Positions 11,155 to 63,614 of a stretch of 64,000 bases of DNA are shown here, piece after piece (position 1 is the first letter of the stretch; each line of letters starts with the position of its first letter). The DNA lies in IMG/VR virus record IMGVR_UViG_3300034072_000647; one strand, written 5' to 3'. The position numbers were made by a program, and so were the translations under genes. The notes under the pieces are model-generated. The model did not search any database. It was not told the origin of the DNA and saw nothing but the letters and a program-made list of their open reading frames with translations. The DNA is from a virus (lineage: Duplodnaviria > Heunggongvirae > Uroviricota > Caudoviricetes).

Positions 11155-11212
11155 GTGAAACCTAAAATTGTTGCTTTTATTATATCAGAATTGTTGAGGA
11201 TCCGCTCGCGCG

Positions 11213-11290: not shown

Positions 11291-11292
11291 CT

Positions 11293-11505: not shown

Positions 11506-11517
11506 ATAATAACCTTT

Positions 11518-11590: not shown

Positions 11591-11598
11591 ATCGAAAC

Positions 11599-11685: not shown

Positions 11686-12254
11686 ATATGCGCTAGCTTA
11701 CCACAGACACGAGCACTAGCGAAGCTGCTCCCGCGAACTCCATTACCCATATCTCCTGATACAACAAAATCGGCCCTATTTCGAGCAGCGTGACTTACCT
11801 TAGTCGTCTGCTCCGTTCCCAATACAGCTACCACACCGGGCAAGGCTGCTGGATAGATACCTTCACTCTTGTCGTTACCAAGCGAGGCCACAATCGTTAG
11901 GCCAAGCTGGTCAGCTACAAACTTGAAATCTTTTGCGCCCTTCTCATCATTAGTAGAGAAAGAAGTACAAACATACTTTACTCCGGCCTTTTTCATTTCG
12001 ATCATTGCTTTATAGGCTATCTGCCAGTCAATAATCACTTCATTGGGTCGAGTAGCGTCTGGGTCACGCTCGAAAGGTGACGCATAATAAACTTTAACGT
12101 TAGGAGCATTTTCCTTGATGGCCTTTAGCACCAAGTCTCCATGCTTATAATCAGTGGATTTGGCACTAACCTGAGTCACTGTCACGGAAGCGTCCGAAGG
12201 CATTCCGTTATCAATAACACCTACAGCGGCTAGAGCCAGTGCAAAAATAAGCAT
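11676..12254 (-). CDS. Secreted compact subtilisin-like serine protease (tentative)
   Basis: Has a signal peptide. Candidate catalytic residues are D in VIDNG, H in KHGDLV and S in GSSFASARVCG (compare GTSMAAPHVAG). Confidence 0.55.
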   Translation of the reverse strand: MLIFALALAAVGVIDNGMPSDASVTVTQVSAKSTDYKHGDLVLKAIKENAPNVKVYYASPFERDPDATRPNEVIIDWQIAYKAMIEMKKAGVKYVCTSFSTNDEKGAKDFKFVADQLGLTIVASLGNDKSEGIYPAALPGVVAVLGTEQTTKVSHAARNRADFVVSGDMGNGVRGSSFASARVCGKLAHMGG

Positions 12255-12274
12255 TTGATGTTCCTTTTTAATCT

Positions 12275-12356
12275 GGTATCCACGGTGGGACTCGAACCCA
12301 CAAGGATTAACCGGGAGATTTTAAGTCTCCTGCGTTTACCATTTCGCCACGTGGAC
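12275..12356 (-). tRNA. tRNA-Leu(TAA)
   Basis: Anticodon GGAGA-CTTAAAA-TCTCC, a long variable arm, T-arm TGGGTTCGAGTCCCA, CCA end. Confidence 0.75.
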
Positions 12357-12415
12357 ATGTCTCTCTTTGTTGAAGCCATTATATCCGTTTTAGCTTCTCA
12401 AGTCAACAATTAAAA

Positions 12416-12601
12416 TCACCAATGCGGTACAGCTATATACTCTTGATATAATTTCTCTAATTCCGTACCATCAACTTCTTCCCAAGACATACCCATTAAC
12501 AATTGCCAATTATCCGCGCTATAACGTTGATACTCGCCCCAAGGCTTCTCGGTGGTTCGTACAATCACTGAGCTAATAGGATGGATGCTTTTAATACGCA
12601 T
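12416..12601 (-). CDS. Hypothetical protein (61 aa)
   Basis: Started at an internal Met to avoid tRNA-Leu. Confidence 0.4.
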   Translation of the reverse strand: MRIKSIHPISSVIVRTTEKPWGEYQRYSADNWQLLMGMSWEEVDGTELEKLYQEYIAVPHW

Positions 12602-12617
12602 AATAACCTTTCTAAAC

Positions 12618-12703
12618 TGGTGGGGAAGGTGGGACTCGAACCCACACGGACTTTCATCCACTGCGTTCTAAGCGCAGCGCGGCTACCATTACACCACAAC
12701 CCC
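12618..12703 (-). tRNA. tRNA-Leu(TAG)
   Basis: Anticodon CTGCG-CTTAGAA-CGCAG, a long variable arm, T-arm GTGGGTTCGAGTCCCAC, CCA end. Confidence 0.7.
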
Positions 12704-12912
12704 GAAACTCTCCCAGTACCGGCTAAGCCGGCTCGCTACACATAGCTGGGATCTACGGATCTATACATATAAGGGCGTAGTTAACGTCTCTTCTCCAGAC
12801 TGTTGCCAGACAAGCTGTAGATTTGCAGCTCCCGCGTGTAACCTTACATGTTTACTAGGTCGGCTCCTGTAACCTCAGGGAACACTTTATACGGGACTGT
12901 GCCCAACCAAAC

Positions 12913-12988
12913 TGGTACTCCAGGTGAGACTTGAACTCACAAATTTACGGTTCTTAGCCGATTGCCTCTGCCGTTTGGCTACTGGAGC
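12913..12988 (-). tRNA. tRNA (anticodon unresolved; loop CTAAGAA on 3-bp stem)
   Basis: Acceptor GCTCCAG/CTGGAGT, D-arm GCC..GGC, T-arm GTGAGTTCAAGTCTCAC, CCA end. Confidence 0.5.
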
Positions 12989-13046
12989 ATGTATATCCGG
13001 CCGCCCCCAAGCATGGATCTTTATACCCCGAAAGGAGCCCATCAAA

Positions 13047-13529
13047 TTAGAAGCGGAAACCTACGCCTGCAAGCAGGGCATGGCTACCGGTATTACGGTC
13101 AAACTCAGAGTAATTGTACTGAGCCTTGATATAGGTAACGTCGCTAATCTTGCGCTCAACACCGGCACCTACCTTGAAGCCATCAAGCTTACGACTGAAA
13201 ACGTCGCGATAGTTATCGTAACCAGCATGGACATAGCCAAGAGTGCGTGGAGTGAAAGCGTAACCAAGACGTGCGCTAGCACCAATCATGCGCTCCTTTT
13301 CGAAGAAATTCGAGCTATTGGCTTCGACACCGATAGTCACTCGGTCGCCGAGCGGAGCATCGACACCGACTGCGGCTCCGTAAACCACGTCGTTAGCGTC
13401 TGGGCTGTTCTGAATGTCATTATATCCGGCAGTTACTTCGGCACGAACACCAGTGAAGGCAGCATTGGTCTGCGCAATGGCAGGGGTAGTGGCGAGGGCA
13501 GCAGCCGCTGCAAGTGCAATAAACTTCAT
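13047..13529 (-). CDS. Outer-membrane beta-barrel protein (OmpA/Omp25/opacity family-like) with signal peptide
   Basis: Starts MKFIALAAAAALATTPAIA after an AGGAGA SD. It has alternating amphipathic strands and ends in GVGFRF with a C-terminal Phe. Confidence 0.75.
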   Translation of the reverse strand: MKFIALAAAAALATTPAIAQTNAAFTGVRAEVTAGYNDIQNSPDANDVVYGAAVGVDAPLGDRVTIGVEANSSNFFEKERMIGASARLGYAFTPRTLGYVHAGYDNYRDVFSRKLDGFKVGAGVERKISDVTYIKAQYNYSEFDRNTGSHALLAGVGFRF

Positions 13530-13567
13530 TTTGTCTCCTAATGTGATGAGGAAGTACTCCTCGGAAC

Positions 13568-13642
13568 TGGAGCGGGCGACGGGAATCGAACCCGCTCTAT
13601 GTACGGTTTGGAAGACCGACCGCATACCTTATGCTCGCCTGC
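13568..13642 (-). tRNA. tRNA-Gly(TCC)
   Basis: Anticodon GCGGT-CTTCCAA-ACCGT. T-arm AGCGGGTTCGATTCCCGT. CCA end. Confidence 0.6.
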
Positions 13643-13742
13643 ATTAAACTTGTCCCTCTTTAACTCGTTTCCTCGACTGATTGCTAGCATCAGTATCGCT
13701 TATCGAGCGAGCGGGGAGGCTCAGCAGCCGTAGCTGTAAAAC

Positions 13743-13818
13743 TGGTCTAGGAGACAGGACTTGAACCTGCAACCCCCTGCTCCCAAAGCAGGTGCGCTAC
13801 CACTTGCGCTACTCCCAG
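13743..13818 (-). tRNA. tRNA-Pro(TGG)
   Basis: D-arm GCGCAAGTGGTAGCGC. Anticodon CCTGC-TTTGGGA-GCAGG. T-arm GCAGGTTCAAGTCCTGT. CCA end. Confidence 0.75.
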
Positions 13819-14273
13819 ATGAAAAAACTGGACCAGTTCACCTATAACACCTCACTGAGTGATGCGTGCTCTGTGTTTCCTGCTGCACTGGTAAGCAGCT
13901 CCCCCGAGAAGGCGGCACATTAGGTTCTCATCCTAATGGCTGGGGCGGTCCGGATGCCTCGCCGCTCTACCGAGTAGTAGCACAGCTTTATTGGCAGAGC
14001 AGGATACCGGCTCAATTTAGTCCCGAATACAATCAGTCCGGGCAGATGAATAGCGCTTTTAGGACCATCACCCAATCTCAAGTGGCTAGAGTGCCGTCCA
14101 CTCTCTAGCCCGCTAGTCCCATGTCAACGGAATGACTAGCCCCGCATCTATTCGTAGAGCGACCGGATGAACCTAACGCATGTTCATCACAACGTTATCA
14201 AGAGTTGCAATAAGCTCGTAAACTTCTGCATTGGGGCGGGTCTTCAAGTCCCGACTCCTCTCTTGATAAACTC

Positions 14274-14302
14274 ATTATAATTCAAGTCAGTTTCAATGTC
14301 AA
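14274..14302 (-). promoter_or_regulatory. Consensus promoter TTGACA-N17-TATAAT driving an ORF-free 430-nt segment and downstream tRNAs
   Basis: Minus sense: TTGACAttgaaactgacttgaatTATAATgag. Confidence 0.55.
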
Positions 14303-14318
14303 GAACTATTTTTCTAAC

Positions 14319-14395
14319 TGGTAGACCGGGTGGGGTTCGAACCCACATACGCGCGGATTAAAAGTCCGCCGTTCCGCCTATTGAACTACCGGTCC
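14319..14395 (-). tRNA. tRNA-Lys(TTT) second copy
   Basis: Anticodon GCGGA-CTTTTAA-TCCGC. T-arm GTGGGTTCGAACCCCAC. CCA end. Confidence 0.7.
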
Positions 14396-14601
14396 ATGAT
14401 GACTGTTCAACCTCGGCTATAGCTGGAACTTAATCCAGCTTATTAATTACAATCTTACTGTATTCAGGATTTTTATAGTCGACCGCCATTTCAAATATCA
14501 CCTCCCCTAGTGAGTTGAATAGTTTGAAATTTGAAATTTTCAGCGGCTCAAACTCAGGGCTGAACCAGCTTTTCAACCTTTGCCACATAAAGCACCTAAA
14601 A

Positions 14602-14677
14602 TGGTAGACGAGGTGGGGTTCGAACCCACGACCTAAGGATTAAGAGTCCCGCGCTCTGCCAACTGAGCTACACGTCC
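14602..14677 (-). tRNA. tRNA-Lys(CTT)
   Basis: D-arm TAGCTCAGTTGGCAGAGCG. Anticodon loop CTCTTAA. T-arm GTGGGTTCGAACCCCAC. CCA end. Confidence 0.6.
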
Positions 14678-14862
14678 GTGAAATATTCCTTTTGAAGCTG
14701 CCAATAGGTCAGCTCATTTTCTGCGTCACAAAGTTCATAATGAACCGAATACCACTCTTCGGACTCTTCTTCATAAGTGCTAAGTTCATTAGACAACTCA
14801 TGAACAAGACGTTCAGCTAAGTCTTCATTAGCTTCAATCTCTTCCCAAGTATGATCGTTCAT
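14668..14862 (-). CDS. Small acidic protein (64 aa)
   Basis: ORF downstream of a consensus early promoter. Confidence 0.5.
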   Translation of the reverse strand: MNDHTWEEIEANEDLAERLVHELSNELSTYEEESEEWYSVHYELCDAENELTYWQLQKEYFTDV

Positions 14863-14914
14863 TGCTATCTCCGCTCTTGATGCCTCATTATAACAAAGGC
14901 AGTAGTGAAAGTCA
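14862..14914 (-). promoter_or_regulatory. Consensus early promoter plus conserved leader GAGGCATCAAGAGCGGAGA (representative of 20 or more copies)
   Basis: Minus sense: TTGACTttcactactgcctttgtTATAATgaggcatcaagagcggagatagcaATG. Confidence 0.65.
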
Positions 14915-14931
14915 AGAACTATTTCAGTAAT

Positions 14932-15009
14932 TGGTGAACCGACGAGGATTTGAACCTCGATCCCAAGGATTAAGAGTCCCGGTATTAGCCTATTATTAAG
15001 ATCGGTCCA
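14932..15009 (-). tRNA. tRNA with CTCTTAA anticodon loop (Lys-CTT-like)
   Basis: T-arm CGAGGTTCAAATCCTCG, CCA end, AT-rich D-arm. Confidence 0.5.
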
Positions 15010-15169
15010 TTATCTCTCGTTGCTGTTTAACCGCCACAACGATGGCGTGATCTGCTTTTAGATTACCTGTTCCGTGACAGGCACAGCAGATGCGAAATTT
15101 GTCTTTGAATTTCGAGCCACGCTTAGGCTTGAATAAGTTACCACTTCCGCCGCATTTGTGACACAACAT
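14996..15169 (-). CDS. Small zinc-ribbon protein (57 aa)
   Basis: Unlisted ORF MLCHKCGGSGN...CCACHGTGN with a GGAGAC SD and a promoter upstream. Confidence 0.45.
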   Translation of the reverse strand: MLCHKCGGSGNLFKPKRGSKFKDKFRICCACHGTGNLKADHAIVVAVKQQREIMDRS

Positions 15170-15280
15170 GGTAGTCTCCGCTCTTGATGCCCAATTATAA
15201 CAAGGTTGGCGGTCAAAGTCAAGAACTAAATTTTAAGAGGTTGAATCCGTTTTAATTACAGAGATTCATCCCCGAAAGCT

Positions 15281-15316
15281 ATAAAAATAGCCGAGGCTCC
15301 GTCGAGAACCTCGGCT
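15281..15316 (-). terminator. Intrinsic terminator (minus strand)
   Basis: AGCCGAGG...CCTCGGCT hairpin followed by ATTTTTAT in minus sense. Confidence 0.55.
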
Positions 15317-15324
15317 ATAATAGA

Positions 15325-15395
15325 TGGTAGCAGACCTAGGTAACGATCCTAGCTAGTCCAGGATATGAGCCCGAACCCCTCCCTGAGGGACTGCC
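15325..15395 (-). tRNA. tRNA-like (T-loop ATCGTTA; anticodon unresolved)
   Basis: Acceptor GGCAGTC/GTCTGCT with a CCA end. The internal fold is unclear. Confidence 0.4.
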
Positions 15396-15398
15396 ACA

Positions 15399-15644
15399 TT
15401 AGCCTTCAGACTTTTCGTAGGTCGCTCGATCTACGCAGATCATGCGATTCAACTTCTTGTCTTTAATTAGAAAAGGCTTATCACTATTACAGTTTGGTTC
15501 ACTGTTATACACAGTTTTATGATATTCACTATCTAGTATTACTGCATTAGGCCCTGCGGTAACAATTACGCGCGGGTCTGCATTGGCGGGACTGCCAGCA
15601 GCCAACCCTAGTAAAAACAGTCCTGTGAGTAACTTATTAAACAT
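15399..15644 (-). CDS. Small secreted protein (signal peptide)
   Basis: Starts MFNKLLTGLFLLGLAAGSPANA. Confidence 0.5.
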   Translation of the reverse strand: MFNKLLTGLFLLGLAAGSPANADPRVIVTAGPNAVILDSEYHKTVYNSEPNCNSDKPFLIKDKKLNRMICVDRATYEKSEG

Positions 15645-15659
15645 ATGATAATCCTTATA

Positions 15660-15730
15660 TGGAGCCGACATTGGGGTTCGAGCCCAACTAAACGACGTAC
15701 GAAGCCGTTGTCCTCGCCAGAGGTGTCGGC
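15660..15730 (-). tRNA. tRNA-Thr(CGT)
   Basis: Perfect acceptor GCCGACA/TGTCGGC. Anticodon ACGGC-TTCGTAC-GTCGT. T-arm TTGGGCTCGAACCCCAA. CCA end. Confidence 0.55.
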
Positions 15731-15736
15731 ATGAAA

Positions 15737-15829
15737 TGGAGGAAGGCTGGTGGTGTCGATCCCCAACCGTATCGCTACGAGTCCACTAGTTTTCAAGACT
15801 AGGCCTGGGGCCGCCCAGGATAACCTTCC
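15737..15829 (-). tRNA. tRNA-Ser(TGA)-like, long variable arm
   Basis: Acceptor GGAAGGT/GCCTTCC and a CCA end. Perfect anticodon hairpin CTAGT-CTTGAAA-ACTAG. Atypical T-arm with an ATCGACA loop. Confidence 0.5.
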
Positions 15830-15830
15830 G

Positions 15831-16034
15831 TTAAGCTGTAATTGCGATGACCTTATCGCGAACGCGGGCAGCGCGCTCAATCTCGCTAGCGCGGGCATCT
15901 ACACCAGCACTGAGCTTGACAATGGTTTCTTGGTCTTTCACGTTCTTGGCATTCTCAGCGTCGATATAAGTTTCGAGATCACGCTGAACCTTGCTGAAGG
16001 CTCCAAGAATATTATCAAGACTACGATTGAACAT
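15831..16034 (-). CDS. Small coiled-coil protein
   Basis: Started at an internal Met. Confidence 0.45.
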   Translation of the reverse strand: MFNRSLDNILGAFSKVQRDLETYIDAENAKNVKDQETIVKLSAGVDARASEIERAARVRDKVIAITA

Positions 16035-16060
16035 TAACTTACCTTTCCGTTGTTGAAAAA

Positions 16061-16137
16061 TGGATCCCCGCGTAGGACTCGAACCCACACTCACTAGGGC
16101 CAAAACCTAGCCGCCTTACCCGATAGCGCAACGGGGA
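16061..16137 (-). tRNA. tRNA-Gln(TTG)
   Basis: Anticodon CTAGG-TTTTGGC-CCTAG. T-arm GTGGGTTCGAGTCCTAC. CCA end. Confidence 0.65.
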
Positions 16138-16143
16138 ATGGTG

Positions 16144-16320
16144 TTAGCGACTTACGAAAGCACTAACACCTGCGATGCTCACCCCGAAAACGAGGAAAAT
16201 CAACGCTAGAATTAGGAATAGAATAATAGGCCAGAAGATGAGCAACAGCCAACTGGTGGCAATGACGCCTACGATCTTGAGAATAATCAAAACAAGCCAA
16301 ATAACGCCAACAATACTCAT
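16144..16320 (-). CDS. Small hydrophobic membrane protein (58 aa)
   Basis: Unlisted ORF MSIVGVIWLVLIIL... Confidence 0.4.
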   Translation of the reverse strand: MSIVGVIWLVLIILKIVGVIATSWLLLIFWPIILFLILALIFLVFGVSIAGVSAFVSR

Positions 16321-16338
16321 ATTTATCCCCCTATAAAC

Positions 16339-16413
16339 TGGTACTCACGCAGGGACTCGAACCCCGATAGGCCGCTAATCAGGCGGCAGCCTTAGCCATT
16401 AGACGACGTGAGC
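16339..16413 (-). tRNA. tRNA-Ile(GAT)-like second copy
   Basis: Acceptor GCTCACG/CGTGAGT. Anticodon GCCGC-CTGATTA-GCGGC. T-arm CGGGGTTCGAGTCCCTG. CCA end. Confidence 0.55.
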
Positions 16414-16766
16414 ATGTGTGCATTCGCACGAAACTAGCCGGTTTGAAGTACATGCACCGGAAACTTAACCATCCGCGGGCGATAACTCCCGTTCCATATT
16501 TATACAGCCAAGGAGGTACTTTGGCTGTTGAGGCCGTCCGGAGACGGTTCCACCATCTGGGCCGTGTGTCGCTCCCAGAATAGATCAAATATTTTACAAG
16601 CACGATCATCCTATGCTTGGGGCCGGTAGGGTGGAGCGCACCCTGGCTTTTGCTAGACGTATTGCAAAGTACGATCTCTTCACTCATCAGGTAACGACCC
16701 ATGTTAGTTACTTTACCAAGCCCGTACTTGGTGTGTGGGGAAGCTGTTCCCACCTTCTAGCAAAAC

Positions 16767-16843
16767 TGGTACACGACATAGGATTCGAACCTATCATTTC
16801 CCACTTGTAAGGAGGGCGATTTCACCAAGCTATCTCGTCGTGC
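16767..16843 (-). tRNA. tRNA-Val(TAC)
   Basis: Acceptor GCACGAC/GTCGTGT. Anticodon loop CTTACAA. T-arm ATAGGTTCGAATCCTAT. CCA end. Confidence 0.6.
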
Positions 16844-27901: not shown

Positions 27902-28429
27902 AGAGTATCTCCTAAATTCTGTGGCCCGTTGGGTAACAAGGTGGGCCAGACCCCGGTCACTTATGCGGCGAGACGAATCTCGTCGAAAGCGACAACGTCA
28001 TTGTCGTTTGCGTTTACTTTTTGTGGCCAGTTTAAGTTTAGCCAGACTATAGCCTAACGTGCTTTTTTCACGCCGAATCGATCTCAGTTCTGCCCCATCA
28101 ATATTCTAGTAAAACTTCTAAGCTACACTGACCCATGCCAACGTCCTTAGACCATAGGAATCTCTCGTTTTGCAATCGAGCGCTTTGTTTTTCTGTTACC
28201 GCAGAATGGTCATTCGTCTTGTCGGGAGAGTAGTGCCTCGGTAAAAGCAGGGAGTCCCTATACTAGAATAATGGTGGAGCAGGTGGGAGTCAAACCCACG
28301 TCTTCAGCTGCTATTAAGTCGCTTCAAGCGGCTATTTAGTTAGATAAGTATAATGTTACCACGCAGGGTAGAGAACAATATACTTATCAATCTCGTTATG
28401 TCTCAATATACTAAATTTGAGCCGTCAAG

Positions 28430-35484: not shown

Positions 35485-35557
35485 TTCTTGATGTAGGAAT
35501 CCAACCTACCTTTATTCCGGTTTAAATCCGGATTGACTCGCAGAATCATAATCAAGA
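35485..35557 (-). tRNA. tRNA-like element with anticodon loop ATTTAAA (UUA, ochre-suppressor-like); T-loop TTGGATT
   Basis: Perfect hairpin TCCGG-ATTTAAA-CCGGA. Acceptor TCTTGAT/ATCAAGA. D-stem GATT/AATC. The T-loop deviates (G56). Confidence 0.3.
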
Positions 35558-50566: not shown

Positions 50567-50896
50567 TCAAGAAATATAATTTTCGACGGTTTCACTATCT
50601 ACTACTAGCACTTCGGGAAATAAAAATCTTAGCCCATTCATACAAGACAAAGCGTGCGCTTTGTTCTTAAAACCTCTAGGTAGCTTTTTCCATACTCCGT
50701 CTAAATACCAGACTTTATATTTCCCTTTCATATAATAATCATCTAAAAGCTTATCACTACTAAAAGAAGCTTCTATTCTGTTGCTACCGTTAAAAGGAAT
50801 AATTTCATTATCTACAAAGGATAGTAGTTCCTCGGTTCCATTAACTTTAGCGAAAACTTTATAAATTCCGCCGTGTTTTTCTTCTACTCTATACAT
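50567..50896 (-). CDS. Hypothetical protein (109 aa)
   Basis: ORF. Confidence 0.5.
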   Translation of the reverse strand: MYRVEEKHGGIYKVFAKVNGTEELLSFVDNEIIPFNGSNRIEASFSSDKLLDDYYMKGKYKVWYLDGVWKKLPRGFKNKAHALSCMNGLRFLFPEVLVVDSETVENYIS

Positions 50897-51124
50897 GTTA
50901 TCATATTAGCACTTAACAATTAGTGGGTCAACTACTATTTTCAGAAAAACAGACTATTATAACTTGAAAATATACCCATTCCCCCTCGTTTTAGTCTGGT
51001 TATATTATTCGACTAAGCGCTTGTGCTAGATAGTTACGACCCTGGGAAAAATAATTCTTGACTTTTGGCAAAAGTCATGATACTATAGTAACGTAGTTAC
51101 AGATTGGTAGTATGCAAAAATTGA

Positions 51125-51262
51125 TTTATCAGACTGCGGAGGATGTCCCTAATTACATTAGGTAAGGTACTTTGAAGAGAAGGAAGAGGCCTCTGGACGG
51201 AGGGAATTCTCGGGTACCTTAACTGAATGTCTATTAGGGACATATCCTCCGCAGGTAATTTA
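51125..51262. repeat. Large imperfect inverted repeat (about 40-bp arms, about 50-bp spacer)
   Basis: CTGCGGAGGATGTCCCTAATTACATTAGGTAAGGTAC ... GGTACCTTAACTGAATGTCTATTAGGGACATATCCTCCGCAG. Confidence 0.6.
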
Positions 51263-52104
51263 ATCTTACCAAAGCGGTAAGATCATTTTACAATAAGTCA
51301 AAGGTCCTCATCGTATTGCGTCTTCACTACGTGAAGACCAATGCAACGTGCTAAAGTGATTTAATTCACTATGGAATACTAAGGCAACTTGATGGGTTGC
51401 ATACCAATTTTCATCTATTTCATAAAATTGGAACGAACTCCGCTACCGGCCGCCCCACCTCCTAGCTTCGTGAACATGCTCTAGCTTATTATGACCTTTA
51501 AAGGGTTGTAGCAGGCTTTTATTTTGTCCTAAGCATACGCACTTCATTCCCATCACCCTAGATTGAGTAAATACTGTAGTGTGCGTTGGTCTGCTACACC
51601 CGTTGAAAGGCCCGTAGTCGGTTGCAACCTGCCACAGGTCCGCAGCAAATTTTTCTGAATCCGCTCGAATTTGCACTAAATTCGGCGCAACTTTTCCCGC
51701 AAACCACCCGTTGCATCCCGTTATCATCGAGCAAAGTGGCAGAAAATAAAAATATGTGGTTAAATCAGCACTTTGTCAAATAAATCTTGACTTTACGCAA
51801 AATAAGGCTTATAATCGTGGCGTTTACCGAATATGGTAGATTTTGCACTGATATTGAATTTGCACTGCCGCCGGCGCAGGTGAGTTTCGGCGCTAGAGAA
51901 ATTTTGGTCGAAATCTGTCTTTGGCACGAAGATGCCTAGCTGGGTAGCTTTAGCACTGGTCGAATTAGCACTTTATTGGCCACACGTAAAAATAGTTGTT
52001 GAACTACTACTGCCGCCGGCGCAATAGCAGCGCTATTGCGAATCATTAGCAATAAAAAATCCTTTGTTTTCAATGACTTAGCTGGAACCGACCGGCCGCC
52101 AAAT

Positions 52105-52190
52105 GTTACGTTATATCATATCCCTATGTGATGATATATCATATCCTGATGTTACGTTATATCATATCGTCATGTTATAACATATCCTAG
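52105..52190. repeat. Four direct repeats of TTATATCATATCC-like 13-mers at about 21-bp spacing
   Basis: ttatatcatatcc / atatatcatatcc / ttatatcatatcg / ttataacatatcc. Confidence 0.55.
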
Positions 52191-52259
52191 CCGGTCTCAG
52201 GGGGCACGATTATAGCAGCGTTCGCGGTCGTGTCAAGCCCAAGAAAAATAAATTTTTGC

Positions 52260-52320
52260 TTGACGCGGGCTTGCTAGTCTGCCAAAATCGGCGCAAGTTA
52301 TTGAGAATGATTCTCAGTAG
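52260..52320 (+). promoter_or_regulatory. Promoter-hairpin unit: TTGACG-N17-CAAAAT-CGGCGCAA plus palindrome TTGAGAATGATTCTCA
   Basis: Plus-strand sigma70 consensus with a GC-rich discriminator. No downstream plus-strand ORF. Confidence 0.5.
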
Positions 52321-52354
52321 AGGACAAAAGAAAAGGGCCTTGCGGCCCAAGTCT

Positions 52355-52600
52355 TTATTCGTTCTCCACCTCGACCCGTCCGATTAGGTCCGCGTTCCTA
52401 TAGTAAAACATTTTTTCGGTTCCGTCAACGTGCATTTGATGGACCCAGAAAATATCCTGCCGCCCCCCTTCCCAGCCGCAGCGAAGGGATGCCACCACCT
52501 TGCCGCAAGGGCCACGCCCTAGCTTAAATTCAGCAACGGTAAAAATATTGCCGCCGCCATTGTCATAGCGCGCTGGAACGCGAATTTTAACAATCGCCAT
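52355..52600 (-). CDS. Hypothetical protein (81 aa), GC-rich module
   Basis: ORF followed by the GGGCCGCAAGGCCC+T-run terminator at 52322-52350. Confidence 0.5.
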   Translation of the reverse strand: MAIVKIRVPARYDNGGGNIFTVAEFKLGRGPCGKVVASLRCGWEGGRQDIFWVHQMHVDGTEKMFYYRNADLIGRVEVENE

Positions 52601-53105: not shown

Positions 53106-53160
53106 CGCCCCGTTTCGGTCGCCCCATGATATGATATATCATCACATTGCTAGAACGTCA

Positions 53161-53195
53161 AAAAACCGGAGATGGCCATCTCCGGTTTTTCTATC
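53161..53195. terminator. Bidirectional intrinsic terminator
   Basis: AAAAACCGGAGATggccATCTCCGGTTTTT. Confidence 0.7.
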
Positions 53196-53522
53196 TAGCC
53201 GTATCGGTTGACTAGCAAAACGCCGTTTTAACTATTCAGCAGACGATACTGTTATAGGGTGACAATTCCGGTTTAATGAGAATTACGGAAAGCCCCTTGC
53301 TAAGTCTGACCTATCTCCATTTCAACCAAACCTAACTAATGATCGCTTTTCGTTTGTCACGCTTCCCGTTCGCCCCGTCTTTAATTGCTATTTTTCAAGC
53401 CGCGAGTGAAAGGGGAAATGGAAGCTATGACAAATCAGGCTAATCGAATCCAAACCTTATGCGATGATTATAGACGTTTTGGGCGGGCCGGTCAAGAATT
53501 ATTTTGACCGGCCCTAATCCCG

Positions 53523-53930
53523 TTAGTCGTCCGTGCCGGTCTTTTCCAGCGAAACGCGGCTGGCCGCTGCCTCAACATAGGCGGCGATAGCGACCAGTGC
53601 GGCCTTTGGCGACTTTTCCAGACCGTCCAGATTGCCCGTCACGATAGCGCCGATGCGTTCGACAAGGTCGGTTTTCTTGACGATGGGGCTGCCGTCCTTG
53701 GAGGTCGGTTCCTTGCCCGCGTAGGGCAGGCCCATCCGGCCAATCTTGGCGACCAGCGAACGATAGGAACGTTCCTTGCCGTCGCTATCGCGCATGTCGG
53801 GGCGTTCCGCCAGCGCCTTGGCGATTTCCAGATTGCCCTTTCCGTTGGGGCCGGCTTCGCAAGCCGCACGAATGATTGCTTCCTGAGCGGCGGTATAGTT
53901 GGTCGGCTTGGCGTTTGCGGTGTTGTCCAT
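53523..53930 (-). CDS. Hypothetical protein (135 aa)
   Basis: Started at MDNTANAK after an AAAGGA SD. Confidence 0.5.
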   Translation of the reverse strand: MDNTANAKPTNYTAAQEAIIRAACEAGPNGKGNLEIAKALAERPDMRDSDGKERSYRSLVAKIGRMGLPYAGKEPTSKDGSPIVKKTDLVERIGAIVTGNLDGLEKSPKAALVAIAAYVEAAASRVSLEKTGTDD

Positions 53931-54058
53931 TTTTAAGAGTCCTTTTGACTTTAGTGTTTCTCTATCAAGCTGCCTCATCGCCTCTTGATGTAATCCTTAT
54001 ATATCGGGCGAAGCATCCCGTCAACAAAAATCGACAAAAAATCTGAAAATCTTTTCTC

Positions 54059-54116
54059 TTGACATGGGCTGAAAAACCTGCTAAAATTTCGGCGCAAAAT
54101 CGGGATCGATTTTTGG
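54059..54116 (+). promoter_or_regulatory. Promoter-hairpin unit: TTGACA-N17-TAAAAT-ttCGGCGCAAAATCGggatCGATTTT
   Basis: Same module family. Confidence 0.5.
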
Positions 54117-54170
54117 CGGCACGATGATAAAGCAATCGCGAGAATTTGTCAAGCCCCTAAAATAAATAAA

Positions 54171-54200
54171 AGAAAAGGGGCTTTTCAGCCCCTTTTCCCT
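54171..54200. terminator. Bidirectional intrinsic terminator downstream of the A1-like gene
   Basis: AAAAGGGGCttttcAGCCCCTTTTC. Confidence 0.7.
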
Positions 54201-54205
54201 TGACA

Positions 54206-55870
54206 TTAGGCAAAAATGATTTGCCGCTGCCCGTTGGCATATGTGATAGTATCCGCGATTGCCCATGACGATGCGCCGATATTATATCCCATTTCCAGCG
54301 ATGCCGTTACGCCAGCCGTAAAGCAAGGATAGAAAATGCTAGGGCTGTGTGTGTGCCCGGTGTTCATCGGAACGCCAAGCGCCGCAAATTGTTTTGGCGA
54401 CCCGCGCGACCCGTTGACACCATTGTGCCCATGATTGCCCATTTCGACACCGGCGATAACTAGGCTTTCATCGGTTTCATGAAAATTGATTTGATCCGAA
54501 TAACCGCCTTCGCCAATTTCTTCATATGCATATTGCAGCATATTGAAATAATCGCCGTTTCCTTCCTCTTTATGGCGGTAAAGCGCCGTCATGCAATCCA
54601 GATAGACAAGTGCGTTTATCGGATCAATCTTAAAGTCAGCATTTTTCAGCCAAGTATTTATGGCCAAATCGTGGTTGCTTTCCACAATGTGAATCTGCCC
54701 GTCATGGCGGAAAGTCGTTTCCGCAATGGCGTCCAGAACGTCGGCCAGCTTTTGCAGGTCGCCGCGCACCGTATTGCCCTTGACGAATTGTTCATGCAGG
54801 AAAGTCGGATCCTTGATATTATGATGGTTCCGGCTGGAAAAATCCAAAACGTCATGCAGGATCACATTTGACGGCTTGAAATTCAGGATCATTTCGCAAG
54901 CGCGATCGAGATTGGCTTGCTCCATCTTTTCCGCATGAATGTCACCGAATTGCAAAGCCGCAACGTCGCCACGCGACAAGGGAACGAAAGCCGATGCGGA
55001 ATAGAAACCGTCCACATCATAGAAGCCGCTTTCGCCGTCCAGCTTGTGCAAATGCCGCATTTCGTTCGTGACAGTATCGACAAACACCGCGCCGATGCAA
55101 TGCGCCGCGCTTGCCTTAGCGCCGCGACCGCGAACGATATAGTTACGCTTGGTAACTGCGCCAGTGCCGACGATGGTTTTCGTTTTCGCGCCCTTCAGTG
55201 CCGCGCCTACGCGAAGCTCAATTTTGGACGTTGGCACGATAGCATGAACGCCGGGAGGCGTATTGCCATCGAATCCTTGCGTCGGCCATTGTGCCGTCAC
55301 GATGACATTTGCGTCGGCCAGAAAATGCGCGCCGTGCAAGTCGATTGTGCCGCGAACAATATAGCGCTTGATCGCCGGATCAAACCAGATATTTGCCTCG
55401 GGATCACCGCTGCCCATATCGTCAAGCGACACTTGACGAAACGCCTTTTTATTATAGACCGTCTGCGCGACCAGAATTTTCGCGCCGTGCATTTCCGCGT
55501 AGCGTTCCAGTGCCGCGAGAAAATCGCGGTCAACATCAGTGTTATTCTGCGCGACGGTCAGGATATAGCGGCCAGCCGGGAAAGCGTCAATATGGTCGCC
55601 AGCTTCCTGAGAAGCCGAAACCGGCATGGCTTCCAGCTTCGCCAGCTTCGCGGCGTCACGCGCCAGCTTCGCGGCTTCGCGCTTGCGCTTGGCGTCTGCC
55701 TTTTCCGCCTGATAGTTGACCAGCATCTGCCAATCATCGTCGGTAGGATCGCGATCAAATTCCGCCGCGAAGTCACCCGACAAGTCATCCCATGCCTTGC
55801 GCTGATTTTCCGGCGTTTTCTTGCGAAATACGCCAGCCGCGCTTGCAAATGCGATGATTTCTGTATTCAT
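54206..55870 (-). CDS. Large metallophosphoesterase, T5 A1-like (554 aa)
   Basis: Motifs GDIHA, HDVLDF, SNHD, GNHGHNG and GHTHSP are present. The start was placed at MNTEIIAF after an AAAGGAG SD. Size and context match the T5 pre-early protein A1 (by inference). Confidence 0.75.
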   Translation of the reverse strand: MNTEIIAFASAAGVFRKKTPENQRKAWDDLSGDFAAEFDRDPTDDDWQMLVNYQAEKADAKRKREAAKLARDAAKLAKLEAMPVSASQEAGDHIDAFPAGRYILTVAQNNTDVDRDFLAALERYAEMHGAKILVAQTVYNKKAFRQVSLDDMGSGDPEANIWFDPAIKRYIVRGTIDLHGAHFLADANVIVTAQWPTQGFDGNTPPGVHAIVPTSKIELRVGAALKGAKTKTIVGTGAVTKRNYIVRGRGAKASAAHCIGAVFVDTVTNEMRHLHKLDGESGFYDVDGFYSASAFVPLSRGDVAALQFGDIHAEKMEQANLDRACEMILNFKPSNVILHDVLDFSSRNHHNIKDPTFLHEQFVKGNTVRGDLQKLADVLDAIAETTFRHDGQIHIVESNHDLAINTWLKNADFKIDPINALVYLDCMTALYRHKEEGNGDYFNMLQYAYEEIGEGGYSDQINFHETDESLVIAGVEMGNHGHNGVNGSRGSPKQFAALGVPMNTGHTHSPSIFYPCFTAGVTASLEMGYNIGASSWAIADTITYANGQRQIIFA

Positions 55871-56002
55871 TTCATAGGCTCCTTTGCCACTAAGAATTTG
55901 CAAGTCCGTTTCCCGTCCTTGCCCTCCCCTTATACAGACGCCAGCGGATAACACAATAGGGAAAATTCGATTAGTGCGATTTTATTTAGAAAATTTTTTC
56001 GC

Positions 56003-56080
56003 TTGACAAGTCGCGGCGAACCTGCCAAAATCGGCGCAAAATTAAGGCTCTTGAGAATCATTCTCAAGAGCCTCATTTTT
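56003..56080 (+). promoter_or_regulatory. Promoter-hairpin-T-tract unit: TTGACA-N17-CAAAAT-CGGCGCAAAA plus GGCTCTTGAGAATCATTCTCAAGAGCC plus TCATTTTT
   Basis: Perfect 27-bp palindrome followed by a T-run. Genes on both sides are on the minus strand. Confidence 0.55.
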
Positions 56081-56084
56081 AGCT

Positions 56085-56255
56085 TAGCGGCGTTTTGACC
56101 GGCAAGTCATTGTCAAGCGCAAATTTCAGCCGCCCCAACGGCCCTAGCGCCTTTTCCGCGTTGGGTGGAACGTCCATATTTGACTTTAGCAACGTCCAGT
56201 AAATGAAAACGCAAAGCAATATGCCAAAAATAGACAGGATAGTTTCAGTCCACAT
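56085..56255 (-). CDS. Small membrane protein (56 aa)
   Basis: Unlisted ORF MWTETILSIFGILLCVFIYW... ATGTGGACTGA overlap with the upstream ORF. Confidence 0.4.
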
Positions 56256-56421
56256 TTGCTAAATCCTCCAACGCGATCATATCGCGCATTTGCAGTTGCA
56301 TTTCGCGCCAAAAAGCGCGGCGATACTCTAACGGCCGGTCGCGAATTTTCGTTACCATTTCCGCGAGGAATGAAGCTAAAGCGCCTTGCGCCCTAGCTTC
56401 ACCCTTTTCCGTTTCGTTCAT
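56245..56421 (-). CDS. Hypothetical small protein (58 aa)
   Basis: Unlisted ORF MNETEKGEARAQ... ATGA overlap with the stop of the HAD gene. Confidence 0.4.
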   Translation of the reverse strand: MNETEKGEARAQGALASFLAEMVTKIRDRPLEYRRAFWREMQLQMRDMIALEDLANVD

Positions 56422-56930
56422 GCGGCCAGCCGCAGGCGGGCATTTTCCCGCGTCGCGTCAATCATCATGACATCATCAGCCAGTGCCCGAATGACGCCTA
56501 GATTGTCATCGAACATGATCGCGCCCATTTCGCGGATAGTGTCGAAACCTTGCGAAAACGCATAGTCTGACAGTAGCTTGATTTTCAGCGCGCCGTCGCC
56601 CATCGTTTCGTGATCCGGGCCAGCCATCAGCCGATGCAGGCAAGCATGATGATGCAAACCATTATCGGCCAAGAATTGCGTATAAATTGCGCCCAAGTCA
56701 ACGCCATTCAGCGGCGAAAAATCACGCGCCGTGCAAATGACGATTGTATGACCGGCGGCAAACATAGTCCGCATGGAAGCCGCCAGCGGCAAGAGCGTAT
56801 CGCGAGCGATCATTTCCGGCGTGCTATTAGCAAACCAAAAATCGAGGTCGCAATGGCCATCTGCATTGTTACGGTAGCGATGCGACGTGTCGATGACAGT
56901 GCCATCCAAGTCAAAAATCACATAAGCCAT
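56418..56930 (-). CDS. HAD-superfamily phosphatase, T5 Dmp (5'-deoxyribonucleotidase)-like
   Basis: Contains HAD motif I (FDLDGTV). Its position next to the A1-like gene matches the T5 layout. Confidence 0.65.
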   Translation of the reverse strand: MAYVIFDLDGTVIDTSHRYRNNADGHCDLDFWFANSTPEMIARDTLLPLAASMRTMFAAGHTIVICTARDFSPLNGVDLGAIYTQFLADNGLHHHACLHRLMAGPDHETMGDGALKIKLLSDYAFSQGFDTIREMGAIMFDDNLGVIRALADDVMMIDATRENARLRLAA

Positions 56931-57047
56931 TTTGGTTTCCTTTTTTAAGCGATGTTTCCCTATCGCTGAAATTGTTATGCCTTAACCCAGCGATGATTGC
57001 AAGCCTAAAAATACGATTAAAAAGATTTATTTATTGAAAATTTTCGC

Positions 57048-57125
57048 TTGACAAATGCCTGCGCCGGCCCTAAAATCGGCGCAAATTGGGGTTATTGAGA
57101 ATCAATCTCAATAACCCCTTTGCTT
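57048..57125 (+). promoter_or_regulatory. Promoter-hairpin-T-tract unit: TTGACA-N17-TAAAAT-CGGCGCAAATT plus GGGGTTATTGAGAATCAATCTCAATAACCCC plus TTTGCTT
   Basis: Same module family. The hairpin core TTGAGAAT..ATTCTCAA is shared with the units at 52260 and 56003. Confidence 0.55.
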
Positions 57126-58895: not shown

Positions 58896-58963
58896 TGCCT
58901 TATCTCCTGAAATTGAGCCTTATAATAAAACGAAAAAAGCACCTTGTCAACAAATCTTTTCAG

Positions 58964-59036
58964 TTGACATTGAATTGAATCTGTGCTAAAATCGGCGCCA
59001 ATTTGAGCGCATTGAAAATGCGCTCATTGAATATTG
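58964..59036 (+). promoter_or_regulatory. Promoter-hairpin unit: TTGACA-N17-TAAAAT-CGGCGCCAATT plus TGAGCGCATTgaaaAATGCGCTCA
   Basis: Same module family. Confidence 0.5.
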
Positions 59037-60003: not shown

Positions 60004-60909
60004 TTAAATCAAATCCTCGATACAATTACATTCAGATATGAAACATTCCGTATTGCCATTGGGCAACCCCGGATTTACCCTACTTTCCCTCAATTTCCAC
60101 AAAATTTCCCGCTCTGTTTCAATTGCCTCATCTAAATCTGGAAACTTCACGAAGTCTAATAACTTATACGCTGGGAACCCCCTAAAACGACTTTCTGTGT
60201 CTCTCTGAGTTATACCTATTTTTTTAAATTTACCAAAATCTACTAAATATAAATAAGTTTCTTTATTCTTCTTAAGAACACTATGATTTATATCTAATCC
60301 GGCTAACTCCAAGGCTTTTACCCAACTACCAAAACGCCCCACGACCGCCATAGAGCTAGGTTCTTCATCCTCTCGGAAGTAATCTAATCTTTCTTTGACT
60401 ACATATTTTCTAACCAAATCCAGCAGATACTCATCTGTATATTCTTTCTTAACTCCCAAACCTCTAGTACGTACCACGTTAGTTATAGCAGCTTCACTAC
60501 GCCCTAGAACCTCTGCAATGTACTTGTACTGATGACCCTTCTCTATTAGTTCTTTGACTTTACTAATATCAGCCTCGATCCAAGAACCTTCTCTATGCTT
60601 TTTACCTCTACGAACCTTTTCGAGCCCCTCCAGCTTAGACAATCTTCTAGATATAGAAGCCTCCGTACGGCCCAATTGTTTAGCTATAGCTTTATAAGTT
60701 TCTTTCGATTCATATAACTCTATAAGTAATTCATCCTCATAGTCTTTCCAGGATTCTCTAATTACGTTAGATTCTAGTACCCCGTATTGTATTAATTTAG
60801 ATATTCTACATTGTATCGCCTTTGTAGTTCTTCCCTCTATTTCCGGAAATTCATCCCTCTCTCTGGCGTTAATTATAATTTGATCTTCTTCTTTTGTCCA
60901 TCGTTTCAT
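60004..60909 (-). CDS. Myb/SANT-like repeat protein with C-terminal T5orf172 (GIY-YIG superfamily) domain
   Basis: The N-terminal half has three W..EED..I / HTH-like repeats. The C-terminal region LYLVDFGKFKKIGITQRDTESRF has a GIY...YIG...R arrangement like the T5orf172 domain. The AT content is atypical, which suggests a homing-endonuclease-like mobile gene. Confidence 0.65.
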   Translation of the reverse strand: MKRWTKEEDQIIINARERDEFPEIEGRTTKAIQCRISKLIQYGVLESNVIRESWKDYEDELLIELYESKETYKAIAKQLGRTEASISRRLSKLEGLEKVRRGKKHREGSWIEADISKVKELIEKGHQYKYIAEVLGRSEAAITNVVRTRGLGVKKEYTDEYLLDLVRKYVVKERLDYFREDEEPSSMAVVGRFGSWVKALELAGLDINHSVLKKNKETYLYLVDFGKFKKIGITQRDTESRFRGFPAYKLLDFVKFPDLDEAIETEREILWKLRESRVNPGLPNGNTECFISECNCIEDLI

Positions 60910-61872: not shown

Positions 61873-62203
61873 TACATCGGCGGTAGCACCTGCCGTAGTA
61901 GCTGTTCAGCCCGCGTCGGTCGTCGTCCCTAGCACATATCTCGCCGCCTCGGATCGCAGAAAGGGCTTCGCCCTATTTTTCCTAGCCGGCGGTGGTGCAA
62001 TGATGACAATCTACGCATCTATAGTTCTGTATCTAGTTCAGGAGTATCCGCGCTACGCATACTATCTCGGACTATTTGCAATGTTAAACATATTTATGAT
62101 ATTCACCGGCCTGGTAGGCATGTTCGTTAAGAGATCGATCAATGTTACTAGAAATGGTGTAATTATTGAGGATCAAAATGGCAGTCAAGATCAGCAGAGC
62201 TGA
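61838..62203 (+). CDS. Small membrane protein
   Basis: ORF with 2 TM helices. The start may be the internal MMTIYAS. Confidence 0.4.
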   Translation: MTTVTTTETATNTSAVAPAVVAVQPASVVVPSTYLAASDRRKGFALFFLAGGGAMMTIYASIVLYLVQEYPRYAYYLGLFAMLNIFMIFTGLVGMFVKRSINVTRNGVIIEDQNGSQDQQS

Positions 62204-63614
62204 CGTAGTAGACACACATATTGTTGAAGACTTGCCGGGGCGTTTTCTCAAGGTACCGATTTCACGGTACCTTGAGACCCTGGCCGAGGGTCGTTATCAG
62301 GGATTTGAGGAGGCGTTGCCTTCTCAGATGGCTTTGATTAATGCGATAAATAAGTATCGCTTTGTTGTTGCGGCATTGTCTCGACGACAGGGGAAGACGT
62401 TTATTGCGAATATCATTGGGCAGTGCGTGACACTGGTTCCTGGTTCGAACGTGTTGATTATGTCACCGAATTACCAGCTGAGCTCGATTTCGTGGGACGA
62501 GCAGCATAAGCTGTTGAAGTTTCATGATATTGAGACGGAGCGCGATAATGCTAAGGACCGAGTGGTTGAGCTGTCGAACGGATCTACGATCCGTATGGGT
62601 TCGATCAATCAGGTTGACTCTAGCGTTGGACGTAGCTACGATTTGATTATTTTCGACGAGGCGGCACTGACTGACGGAATGGAGGCATTCTCGCAGGCTT
62701 TGAGACCTACGTTGGATAAACCGAATTCGAAGGCTATCTTTATTTCGACGCCTCGTGGTAAGTCGAACTGGTTTAGCGTGCTTTATAACCGCGGTTACGA
62801 CATTGGTGAAGATGGCCAGATGCAGAAGTTTCCTGACTGGTGTTCGATTCACGCAACCTGGGCCGATAATCCTAGAATGACTGAGGATGACGTCGCTGAG
62901 GCACGTCGTACAATGTCTAAGGCTCTATTTGAGCAGGAATATGAGGCATCGTTCAACAACTACGAAGGTCAGATTTGGAACTTAACGGACGACTGTATAG
63001 TTGAGGAAGGAGAGACGCATGAAGTATTTCTTGAAGACGATCGCGGGAATCCTGTTACAGCTCCAGACGGCTCGTTTGTTAGCGAGATCAGGCTCAAGCA
63101 TCCCTATCTTCGCGGCAACGATCGCCATAAGTTGGATATCGTCGCGGGTCTAGACCTTGGTTTCAAGGATCCAACGGCAATGTGTGTCATTGGATATGAT
63201 TATGCGGCTGATATTTACTACGTTCTAGACGAGTATTTTGACAACGAGAAGACCACTTCGGGTCACGCGCAGGAAATAGAGCGCTTGATCAAAAAGTGGG
63301 AAATTGACTACGTATTTATCGACTCGGCAGCGCAACAGACTAAGTTCGACCTTGCTAAAGATTACGACATTCCGACAATTAACGCGACTAAATCCGTTAA
63401 TGACGGTATCGGTTTCGTAGCTTCCCTAGTTGATAATAAGAAAGTAATTGTACCAAAGCACTGTCGTGAGGTACTGAGAGCATTTGACGCTTATAAGTGG
63501 GATCCTAATCCTAACCTCGTCAAGGAGAAGCCGAAGCACGATATTGCATCTCACATGGCTGACGCTATTAGATATGCTCTGTACAGCTTCGAATCCTCTG
63601 TAGGAAAGATGTAA
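62178..63614 (+). CDS. Terminase large subunit
   Basis: Walker A-like SRRQGKTF, Walker B LIIFDEAAL, and a C-terminal nuclease-like region. About 480 aa. Confidence 0.9.
   Translation: MAVKISRADVVDTHIVEDLPGRFLKVPISRYLETLAEGRYQGFEEALPSQMALINAINKYRFVVAALSRRQGKTFIANIIGQCVTLVPGSNVLIMSPNYQLSSISWDEQHKLLKFHDIETERDNAKDRVVELSNGSTIRMGSINQVDSSVGRSYDLIIFDEAALTDGMEAFSQALRPTLDKPNSKAIFISTPRGKSNWFSVLYNRGYDIGEDGQMQKFPDWCSIHATWADNPRMTEDDVAEARRTMSKALFEQEYEASFNNYEGQIWNLTDDCIVEEGETHEVFLEDDRGNPVTAPDGSFVSEIRLKHPYLRGNDRHKLDIVAGLDLGFKDPTAMCVIGYDYAADIYYVLDEYFDNEKTTSGHAQEIERLIKKWEIDYVFIDSAAQQTKFDLAKDYDIPTINATKSVNDGIGFVASLVDNKKVIVPKHCREVLRAFDAYKWDPNPNLVKEKPKHDIASHMADAIRYALYSFESSVGKM

Follow-up and report, generated by a model that had tools for sequence, protein, structure and literature searches.

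What is the function of a kilobase of phage DNA that is crowded with repeats and carries only short open reading frames (ORFs)? The question is raised by the untranslated region at about 50,900-52,350 of IMG/VR virus record IMGVR_UViG_3300034072_000647 (Caudoviricetes), of which a stretch of 64,000 nucleotides was analysed (hereafter the window). An earlier note on this DNA had offered three options, namely a replication origin, an injection-stop signal of the phage T5 type or a packaging site. The answer that we consider probable, judging from sequence anatomy, is that the region is a homologue of T5 Repeat Region 3, i.e. of the injection-stop signal together with the inner end of the long terminal repeat. 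Support for the T5 option comes from the A1/dmp block that adjoins the region and from local repeats of the same motif families in the same order; a packaging role is plausible jointly with it, and the origin option is disfavoured.

A distant T5-like phage and its untranslated kilobase

The pre-early genes identify the phage. The ORF at 54206-55954(-) (582 amino acids), situated 2 kb from the repeat region, is the A1 homologue (phrog_1745, DNA transfer protein A1, 8e-145) and shares 38-42% identity with A1 of T5-like phages, while T5 dmp matches the next ORF upstream of it (56418-56930(-), 2e-8). A T4-type large terminase (TerL) is encoded at 62166-63614, with its best identity (47.6%) to Vibrio T5-like phages, and the window carries 32 tRNA genes plus a permuted tmRNA. 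DNA searches with the repeat region and the surrounding 24 kb against 50,697 phage records gave no match, so that homology of the region is shown through proteins and motifs. Given the A1, dmp, tRNA and TerL evidence together with this lack of any DNA match to deposited phages, the source is a deep-branching, uncultured, distant T5-like phage.

The map is that of the T5 group as well. Its order in the window (TerL block, dmp, A1, a 151-amino-acid ORF, small ORFs, the untranslated region, early genes and tRNAs) has the same topology as the T5 map with its two terminal repeats collapsed, and as the equally collapsed map of Vibrio phage AG74 (MT460514.1; Demerecviridae, Ermolyevavirinae), for which we verified an exact terminal repeat of 7130 bp. 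The adjacency of TerL and A1 also occurs in the metagenomic relatives L002, L003 and L011.

The untranslated region lies between ORFs 50567-50896(-) and 52355-52600(-), and the description of it as a non-coding kilobase proved accurate: the short ORFs inside have no PHROG match, and tblastx against every related locus found no protein-level conservation between 50.5 and 52.7 kb. As in T5, at least 1 kb of untranslated DNA thus separates the pre-early dmp/A1 module from the early genes. The region also sits, as had been stated, at the edge of a GC-rich module, with GC rising from 0.31-0.39 before about 51.0 kb to 0.42-0.52 beyond about 51.5 kb.

Repeat classes and their order in the window, T5 and AG74

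T5 Repeat Region 3 (RR3; AY587007, 9194-10409) is made of nested repeats over 1.2 kb and extends past the end of the left terminal repeat; within it lie the shear point, the 7.9% nick and the injection-stop signal. A comparison with it, which the earlier note had asked for, found the same motif families in the same order with the A1/dmp block adjoining.

The first of these families is the array of 15-mers named DRD in T5. The motif TTWGCACT has 11 matches in the window (5.0 expected), of which five lie on the + strand within 51670-51972 and a sixth at 50906; counted as AGTGCWAA, 6 of the 11 fall within the region (P ~3e-7). This agrees with the claim of at least five TGCACT repeats at 51660-51990, and the repeats given there (TTTGCACT and TTAGCACT) are the reverse complements of T5 DRD 15-mers. 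Read from the pre-early to the early side they become AGTGCAAATTCGAGC, AGTGCTAATTCGACC and similar sequences, to be compared with the nine T5 DRDs (TGTGCAAATCCGACA). The window thus has six DRD-type 15-mers (AGTGCWAATTCGACC-like) on the minus strand of 51663-51972 (starts at 51972, 51957, 51866, 51849, 51774 and 51677), a one-orientation array like that of RR3, and a seventh copy (50899-50913) overlaps the first early promoter. A weight matrix built from the six window copies alone was run against T5 (first 12.5 kb, both strands), where the six best scores, and seven of the best nine, were DRD copies, all on one strand; its best scores in L001 and L002 fell in their untranslated regions. Conversely, a T5 DRD matrix placed 3 of its 10 best window scores inside 51677-51972, all on the minus strand. 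Among the AG74 DRDs, which take the forms TCGGATTTGCAC and TCGAATTTGCAC, the second form is the same as in the window, as is the variant GTGCAAATTCGA. In T5 (L014), DRD1-DRD9 (9672-10409) span 737 bp, roughly what a 250-nm tail can accommodate, and the shear point lies just before DRD1; it may therefore be the DRD-bearing T5 DNA that occupies the tail during the pause.

Directly before a DRD stands a CTGCGC box, which abuts the DRD in the window (51873-51879), T5, AG74 and L002 and which in T5 is the annotated 7.9% nick. The box belongs to a composite, GAATTTGCAC-N9-GGCGCAGG, at 51854-51881(+). It equals T5 GGATTTGCACAAAAGCGCAGGG, annotated as the 7.9% major nick, and AG74 GGATTTGCACCCAGGCGCAGGA (composite GGATTTGCACCCAGGCGCAGG); the full DRD-GCGCAGG form in the window is GAATTTGCACTGCCGCCGGCGCAGGT. 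We regard the window composite as a candidate nick site. Since the composites of T5, AG74 and the window correspond, the reported 18-bp direct repeat is part of this conserved unit. That repeat does occur twice, as had been said, and its dimensions needed correction: CTGCCGCCGGCGCA has exactly two copies in the window (51866-51879 and 52010-52023), the second starting at 52010 rather than 52005, and the exact repeat is 15 nt (ACTGCCGCCGGCGCA) rather than 18. It forms part of a 25-nt family with three copies (51665, 51854 and 51999), the third of which (51999-52023(+)) ends in CTGCCGCCGGCGCA and overlaps a block, AGTAGTnnTCAACAACTATTTTTACG (51985-52009), that is conserved among relatives.

The third family comprises palindromes with two 7-nt arms around one nucleotide (7-1-7). 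The form TGAGAATCATTCTCA occurs at 52302 and 56052 and TGAGATTGATTCTCA at 57096, where the 15-mer is letter for letter the T5 RR3 element at 9614; a weaker copy, TGCGAATCATTAGCA (52037-52051), lies within the palindrome TTATTGCTAATGATTCGCAATAG at 52033-52055, which is of the T5 DRC type and is kept in L007 and L013. Palindromes of the TGAGAATCATTCTCA type are confined in the window to the pre-early block and this region. In T5, the DRC repeats and palindromes E to I are 7-1-7 palindromes of the TGAGAATCATTATCA type, and the DRC-type elements of the window (AATGAGAATCATTATCATT; TGAGAATGATTCTCA at 52302-52316, TGCGAATCATTAGCA at 52037-52051, and those at 56052 and 57096) share the pattern TGAGAATnATT(A/C)TCA with them. 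When the palindromes of T5 (L014, 9475-9628) and of the window (52302-52316, 56052-56066 and 57096-57110) were compared with the Fur-box consensus (TGATAATnATTATCA), the T5 TGAGAATCATTATCA matched at 14 of 15 positions and the window TGAGAATCATTCTCA, as a perfect 7-1-7, at 13 of 15. The symmetric T-to-G change in the window form sits at positions that distinguish Fur, PerR and Zur boxes. Readings in terms of Fur, CRP or other host factors are drawn from consensus sequences only, and we offer them as leads.

The fourth class is an array of four iterons on the minus strand at 52090-52196, made of GGATATGWTATAWC units and bracketed by an inverted repeat (GACCGGC.../...GCCGGTC). The iteron ATATCATATC starts at 52113, 52136 and 52159, with a variant, ATAACATATC, at 52177. 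The four iterated 13-mers announced for 52105-52190 are therefore real, whereas the helical-repeat spacing ascribed to them does not hold: successive units are 23, 23 and 18 bp apart, distances that resemble those of plasmid iterons and are no multiple of the 10.5-bp helical repeat. The core GATATGWTATAWC is found just five times over the 64 kb, four times in the array and once, inverted, at 53128. This last copy belongs to a partner at 53125-53147(+), 96% complementary to 52126-52148, that lies about 1 kb upstream inside the pre-early block. Related motifs stand at the same place in relatives (as a single palindrome in L001, as an inverted pair of 43 nt in L008), and the iteron sequence differs in every lineage. 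Because it does so, the iterons are likely bound by a fast-evolving, phage-specific protein, for which the A2-like 151-amino-acid ORF (ORF151) is the candidate.

When these classes are read from the pre-early to the early side, their succession is closely similar in four phages. T5 has DnaA-box inverted repeats, four 7-1-7 palindromes, CTGCGCT, six DRDs, the repeat end and three DRDs; L002 has GGGGATTATGACATTT iterons, two 7-1-7 palindromes, CTGCGCC and three DRD-like repeats; and the window has iterons, a 7-1-7-like palindrome, TGCGCC, two DRDs, CTGCGCC and four DRDs. AG74 has DnaA boxes with palindromes, CTATATTAGTGATCC iterons, CTGCGCC, DRDs, the repeat end and about five further DRDs; a scan of its region found no 7-1-7 palindrome. 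The order of iterons or inverted repeats, TGAGAATnATTCTCA (7-1-7) palindromes, CTGCGC and DRD array is thus common to the window, T5 and L002, and to AG74 minus the palindrome.

The iterons occupy the position of the DnaA-box repeats of T5, and here the window departs most clearly from RR3. In T5, about eight DnaA or DnaA* boxes are arranged in pairs 3 bp apart, and an inverted pair (IRD'spacerIRC' and IRCspacerIRD) is present; the DnaA boxes and the 131-bp IRD'-52 bp-IRC' structure were regarded as the probable core of the injection-stop signal by Davison. In place of paired boxes and the 131-bp unit, the window has its four 23-bp iterons of unrelated sequence. The inverted partner of the iterons is an analogue of that of the T5 repeat, which lies kilobases upstream, the distance being 1 kb in the window versus 3.2 kb in T5. 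AG74 resembles the window in combining phage-specific iterons with DRDs and in having the TerL block adjoin the dmp side of the repeat, and differs from it in retaining perfect DnaA boxes and palindromes, in its iteron sequence, in that its A2, A1 and dmp genes read towards the terminus, and in that its repeat (7.1 kb) has a deposited boundary where that of the window is only predicted.

Closer relatives allowed the refuting outcome named in the earlier note, that the repeats might not be conserved, to be checked; islands and motif order are in fact conserved. In L001, L007, L008 and L013, whose A1 proteins are 58-67% identical to that of the window (50% for L002), colinear islands of common sequence alternate with flanking small ORFs that vary. 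The islands are the iteron motif, block AGTAGTnnTCAACAACTATTTTTACG, block AAATTTGCTGCGGACCTG, an ATAAGCTAGRG block and a small hairpin. Block AGTAGTnnTCAACAACTATTTTTACG, which L001, L007 and L008 have kept, recurs in inverted form at 50921-50941; the pair formed by its highly conserved TCAACAACTATTTT part (51989-52009) and this copy, which is 86% complementary and overlaps the first early promoter, brackets the central kilobase. Block AAATTTGCTGCGGACCTG (51635-51654(-)) is the same in L001 and differs little in L007 and L013. Across all phages compared, the order of repeats is kept where A1 is just 40-67% identical to that of the window, and every repeat class is strongly over-represented in the region, which leaves scarcely any room for a fortuitous, functionless repeat-rich spacer, an explanation effectively refuted by conservation. 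Exact-pattern scans of IMG/VR otherwise returned L001 again and L005, the latter a chance match within a coding gene that was discarded.

Several observations weigh against homology with RR3. The T5 and window motifs are short, and significance lies in the clustering and the reciprocal scan alone; single scores of the T5 matrix in the window do not exceed shuffled maxima, and no DNA-level alignment of the two regions is detectable. Consensus DnaA boxes number zero in 50,900-52,350, with four one-mismatch boxes where 2.5 are expected, and the 131-bp unit with its 52-bp spacer is absent from the region, so that we set aside the DnaA-box model of the stop region for this phage; L007 and L013 have one perfect DnaA box each. 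A1 and dmp read towards the repeat region in the window and away from it in T5 and AG74. ORF151 resembles T5 A2 in size, position and C-terminal pattern, but hhalign gives only E 0.015 (probability 3%) and tblastn no match between them, and its assignment as A2 is tentative. The window holds a single, collapsed copy of the terminal repeat, so that its boundary and the direction of entry are deduced. In T5 itself, the element that actually stops transfer was never pinned down.

Packaging, transcription control and replication

A first alternative, compatible with RR3 homology, is that the array is primarily a packaging signal, recognized by the small terminase subunit around the cut, with the stop located elsewhere or not encoded. 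The repeat ends point in this direction: in T5 the left terminal repeat ends at 10139, between DRD6 (9881) and DRD7 (10225), and in AG74 the repeat end has about five DRD copies to either side of it within the array. Furthermore, the AG74 boundary (GA|GTCCAGCTGCGTGCAGCAAGG...AATTTTT...TCGGATTTGCAC) resembles the most conserved block of the window (CAGGTCCGCAGCAAATTTTT...TCGAATTTGCAC, 51632-51677, including 51635-51654). Direct-repeat arrays that flank the cut build pac sites in other phages, e.g. pacL/pacR of SPP1. Yet the AG74 boundary is taken as deposited and the window terminus is only a prediction; the iterons, 7-1-7 palindromes and promoters would need a separate explanation; and T5 genetics located the cis-acting stop in this same region, RR3. 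As the primary function of the array, packaging is thus a possibility that we rate clearly below RR3 homology. A role at the terminase cut and repeat end in addition to the stop function is likely, as both the T5 and AG74 repeat ends lie inside the DRD array, and by its resemblance to the AG74 boundary the window block leads us to predict the inner end of the terminal repeat near 51,635. The ends of the L007 (11.2 kb) and L013 contigs were considered as a physical genome end and rejected, because the two sequences part from each other about 100 bp short of the contig ends and the L007 start has no match to L011; these breaks look like strain-variation or assembly effects.

Slightly less probable again, and likewise compatible with RR3 homology, is a transcription-control or small-RNA locus that would produce regulatory or decoy RNAs and insulate transcription units, with the repeats as operators. 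Promoter-like sites, scored as consensus matches only, number 17 where 5.8 are expected. A perfect 12/12 sigma-70 promoter at 52209-52236(-) (TTGACA-16-TGcTATAAT) fires into the iterons and the gene-free region and faces + strand promoters at 51787 (11/12) and 51058 (9/12), whose -35 regions are of the same family as those of the sense promoters in the pre-early block. The former is half of a back-to-back pair at 51751-51815 (TTGACT-17-TATAAT at 51787-51815(+) and TTGACA-17-CATATT at 51779-51751(-)). Such convergent promoters, taken with the hairpins, fit an insulator between pre-early and early genes.

The large imperfect hairpin placed at 51125-51262 exists, its arms being corrected to 51134-51254 (121 nt): perfect arms at 51134-51153/51233-51254 extend to 51160-51170/51214-51224, and as DNA the fold is far more stable than those of shuffled sequences (-41.2 kcal/mol, z = -10.1). 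It is part of a unit at 51058-51295(+) in which a promoter (TTGACT-17-TGaTACTAT, 51058-51086) precedes the hairpin and a terminator-like stem (TCTTACC/GGTAAGA plus TCATTTT, 51264-51289) follows it; as + strand RNA the unit folds with -76.2 kcal/mol (z = -7.9), and it may possibly encode an antisense RNA of about 200 nt. A long hairpin also stands at the corresponding place of L001 (15765-15845), and the pairing of a small hairpin, GTCTTCAC/GTGAAGAC (51320-51338), is kept in L007 (GTCTTC/GAAGAC) and retained in L001 (GTGTTTT/AAAACAC) through two compensatory changes. Against an RNA function, the sequence of the 121-nt hairpin is not conserved and is absent from the short L008 version; Rfam 15 gave no match for the region at gathering score, the best relaxed hit being a plant miRNA model (E = 0.27); and RNAalifold on four relatives found no covarying structure in 51,285-51,665, for which reason the idea of one long structured RNA was dropped.

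The 7-1-7 palindromes are tied to transcription as well, standing at +10 to +35 of a promoter cassette found in five copies. The copy at the edge of the region (52238-52320(+)) is directed antisense and consists of a UP-like A/T run, TTGACG-17-TGcCAAAAT and CGGCGCAAG, with the palindrome TGAGAATGATTCTCA (52302-52316) at about +10. The five near-identical + strand cassettes (52238-52297, 54037-54096, 55981-56040, 57026-57085 and 58952-58992), antisense to dmp and A1, are made up of an A/T-rich upstream run, CTTGACA-17-TGCYAAAAT and CGGCGCAAA, and three of them have a TGAGAATCATTCTCA palindrome within 35 nt. Two of the cassette palindromes are palindromic hairpins of 29-31 nt followed by a T-run, which would serve as operators or give rise to RNAs about 45 nt long. 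The module has six copies in L007 and occurs also in L006, L011 and L013.

Far less probable is a replication origin, at which an initiator would be brought in by the iterons and DnaA-like boxes and AT-rich DNA close by would be unwound. Iteron origins such as those of P1, F and R6K (oriγ) combine tandem sites of about 22-23 bp with nearby promoters and DnaA-box-like 9-mers. The window parallels them in its four iterons spaced by 23 bp, in divergent promoters nearby and in DRD 9-mers that match the DnaA box TTWTNCACA at seven of nine positions (eight of nine in T5). It differs from them in that the region has no adjacent initiator or Rep gene, no consensus DnaA box (and no enrichment of one-mismatch boxes), no AT-rich unwinding stretch (GC 0.38-0.48) and no switch in cumulative GC skew, which runs straight through. 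The T5 origins, moreover, lie near the genome centre, and T5 replication genes are not expressed from first-step DNA.

Edges, neighbouring genes and a model of stalled transfer

On the first-step-transfer side, the untranslated region is bounded by a bidirectional intrinsic terminator at 52335-52348 (GGGCCGCAAGGCCC plus a T-run), which closes the last pre-early operon. The last ORF of that operon (52355-52600(-)) is a member of the phage T3 gene 1.05 family (Pfam PF25755, 1.5e-17), an early protein family of the T7 group that here lies inside a T5-like pre-early block. The early-side edge is the first early-side promoter at 50903-50931(-) (TTGACC-17-TAATAT), ahead of ORF 50567-50896. The pre-early genes (53523-56930) keep the T5 map order as seen from the terminase side (dmp, A1 and an A2-sized ORF), each on the opposite strand, so that the window operon runs dmp, A1, ORF151 towards the repeat region and those of T5 and AG74 run A2, A1, dmp away from it. 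Within this block, a promoter (TTGACC-17-TATAAT, 53495-53467(-)), about 300 nt free of ORFs and a strong terminator (53190-53160) delimit a candidate non-coding RNA (53160-53495), and in L001 two units of about 190 nt, each running from a promoter to a terminator (14345-14565 and 14596-14820), begin with TATCAAGA. At the junction with the terminase block, gene 60004-60909(-) (GC 0.36) encodes helix-turn-helix/Myb and homing-endonuclease-associated repeat domains and is probably a mobile endonuclease-type insertion, beside the presumed left end of the repeat. The permuted tmRNA (85.6 bits), the 32 tRNA genes and a tRNA with anticodon TTA, suppressor-like and called tRNA-Stop by ARAGORN, occupy between them 27961-28335, 35485-35557 and 1319-16843, all on the minus strand.

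Returning to the region as an RR3 homologue, a course of infection can be drawn from T5 biology and window anatomy. The TerL-proximal end of a terminal repeat of approximately 10 kb would enter first, and host RNA polymerase would transcribe dmp, A1 and their neighbours from consensus promoters. Transfer would stall as the array arrives at the envelope or tail exit and assembles a large protein-DNA complex. This complex would use the four iterons with their inverted partner 1 kb upstream (possibly by a DNA loop), the Fur-box-like 7-1-7 palindromes, two GC boxes ending GCGCAGG/GCGCAAT and the six same-strand DRD 15-mers. A1 with an A2-like partner would then release the stall. The convergent promoters and hairpins would insulate pre-early from early transcription, and late in infection the inner end of the repeat, predicted near 51,635, is probably generated by a cut that the DRD array directs.

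Conservation of the DRD, CTGCGC and 7-1-7 elements across subfamilies points to conserved partners for them. We advance, tentatively and as something that may well prove otherwise, an ancestral functional core that would lie outside the DnaA-box inverted repeats and in which 7-1-7 palindromes are followed by CTGCGC (the nick) and same-strand DRDs, all recognized by conserved proteins of phage or host; the iterons would be lineage-specific sites for A2-like proteins, and the DRDs would mark the terminase cut, with the repeat end at about 51,635 in the most conserved 18-mer.

How T5 halts injection once 8% of its genome has entered is a question that goes back decades, and the region described here is a structurally divergent form of this known, mechanistically unsolved element. 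A lineage beyond DNA alignment with T5 keeps three short motif classes in the same order, at a locus that has lost the DnaA boxes underpinning the most recent T5 model. Its comparative value is that it reveals what has persisted of the T5 stop region over a deep divergence: from nested repeats that exceed 1 kb, a few conserved candidates (DRD, CTGCGC and 7-1-7) emerge for mutation and binding assays. By linking the stop region to the terminal-repeat cut, it also provides a route to predicting repeat boundaries in metagenomic T5-like genomes.

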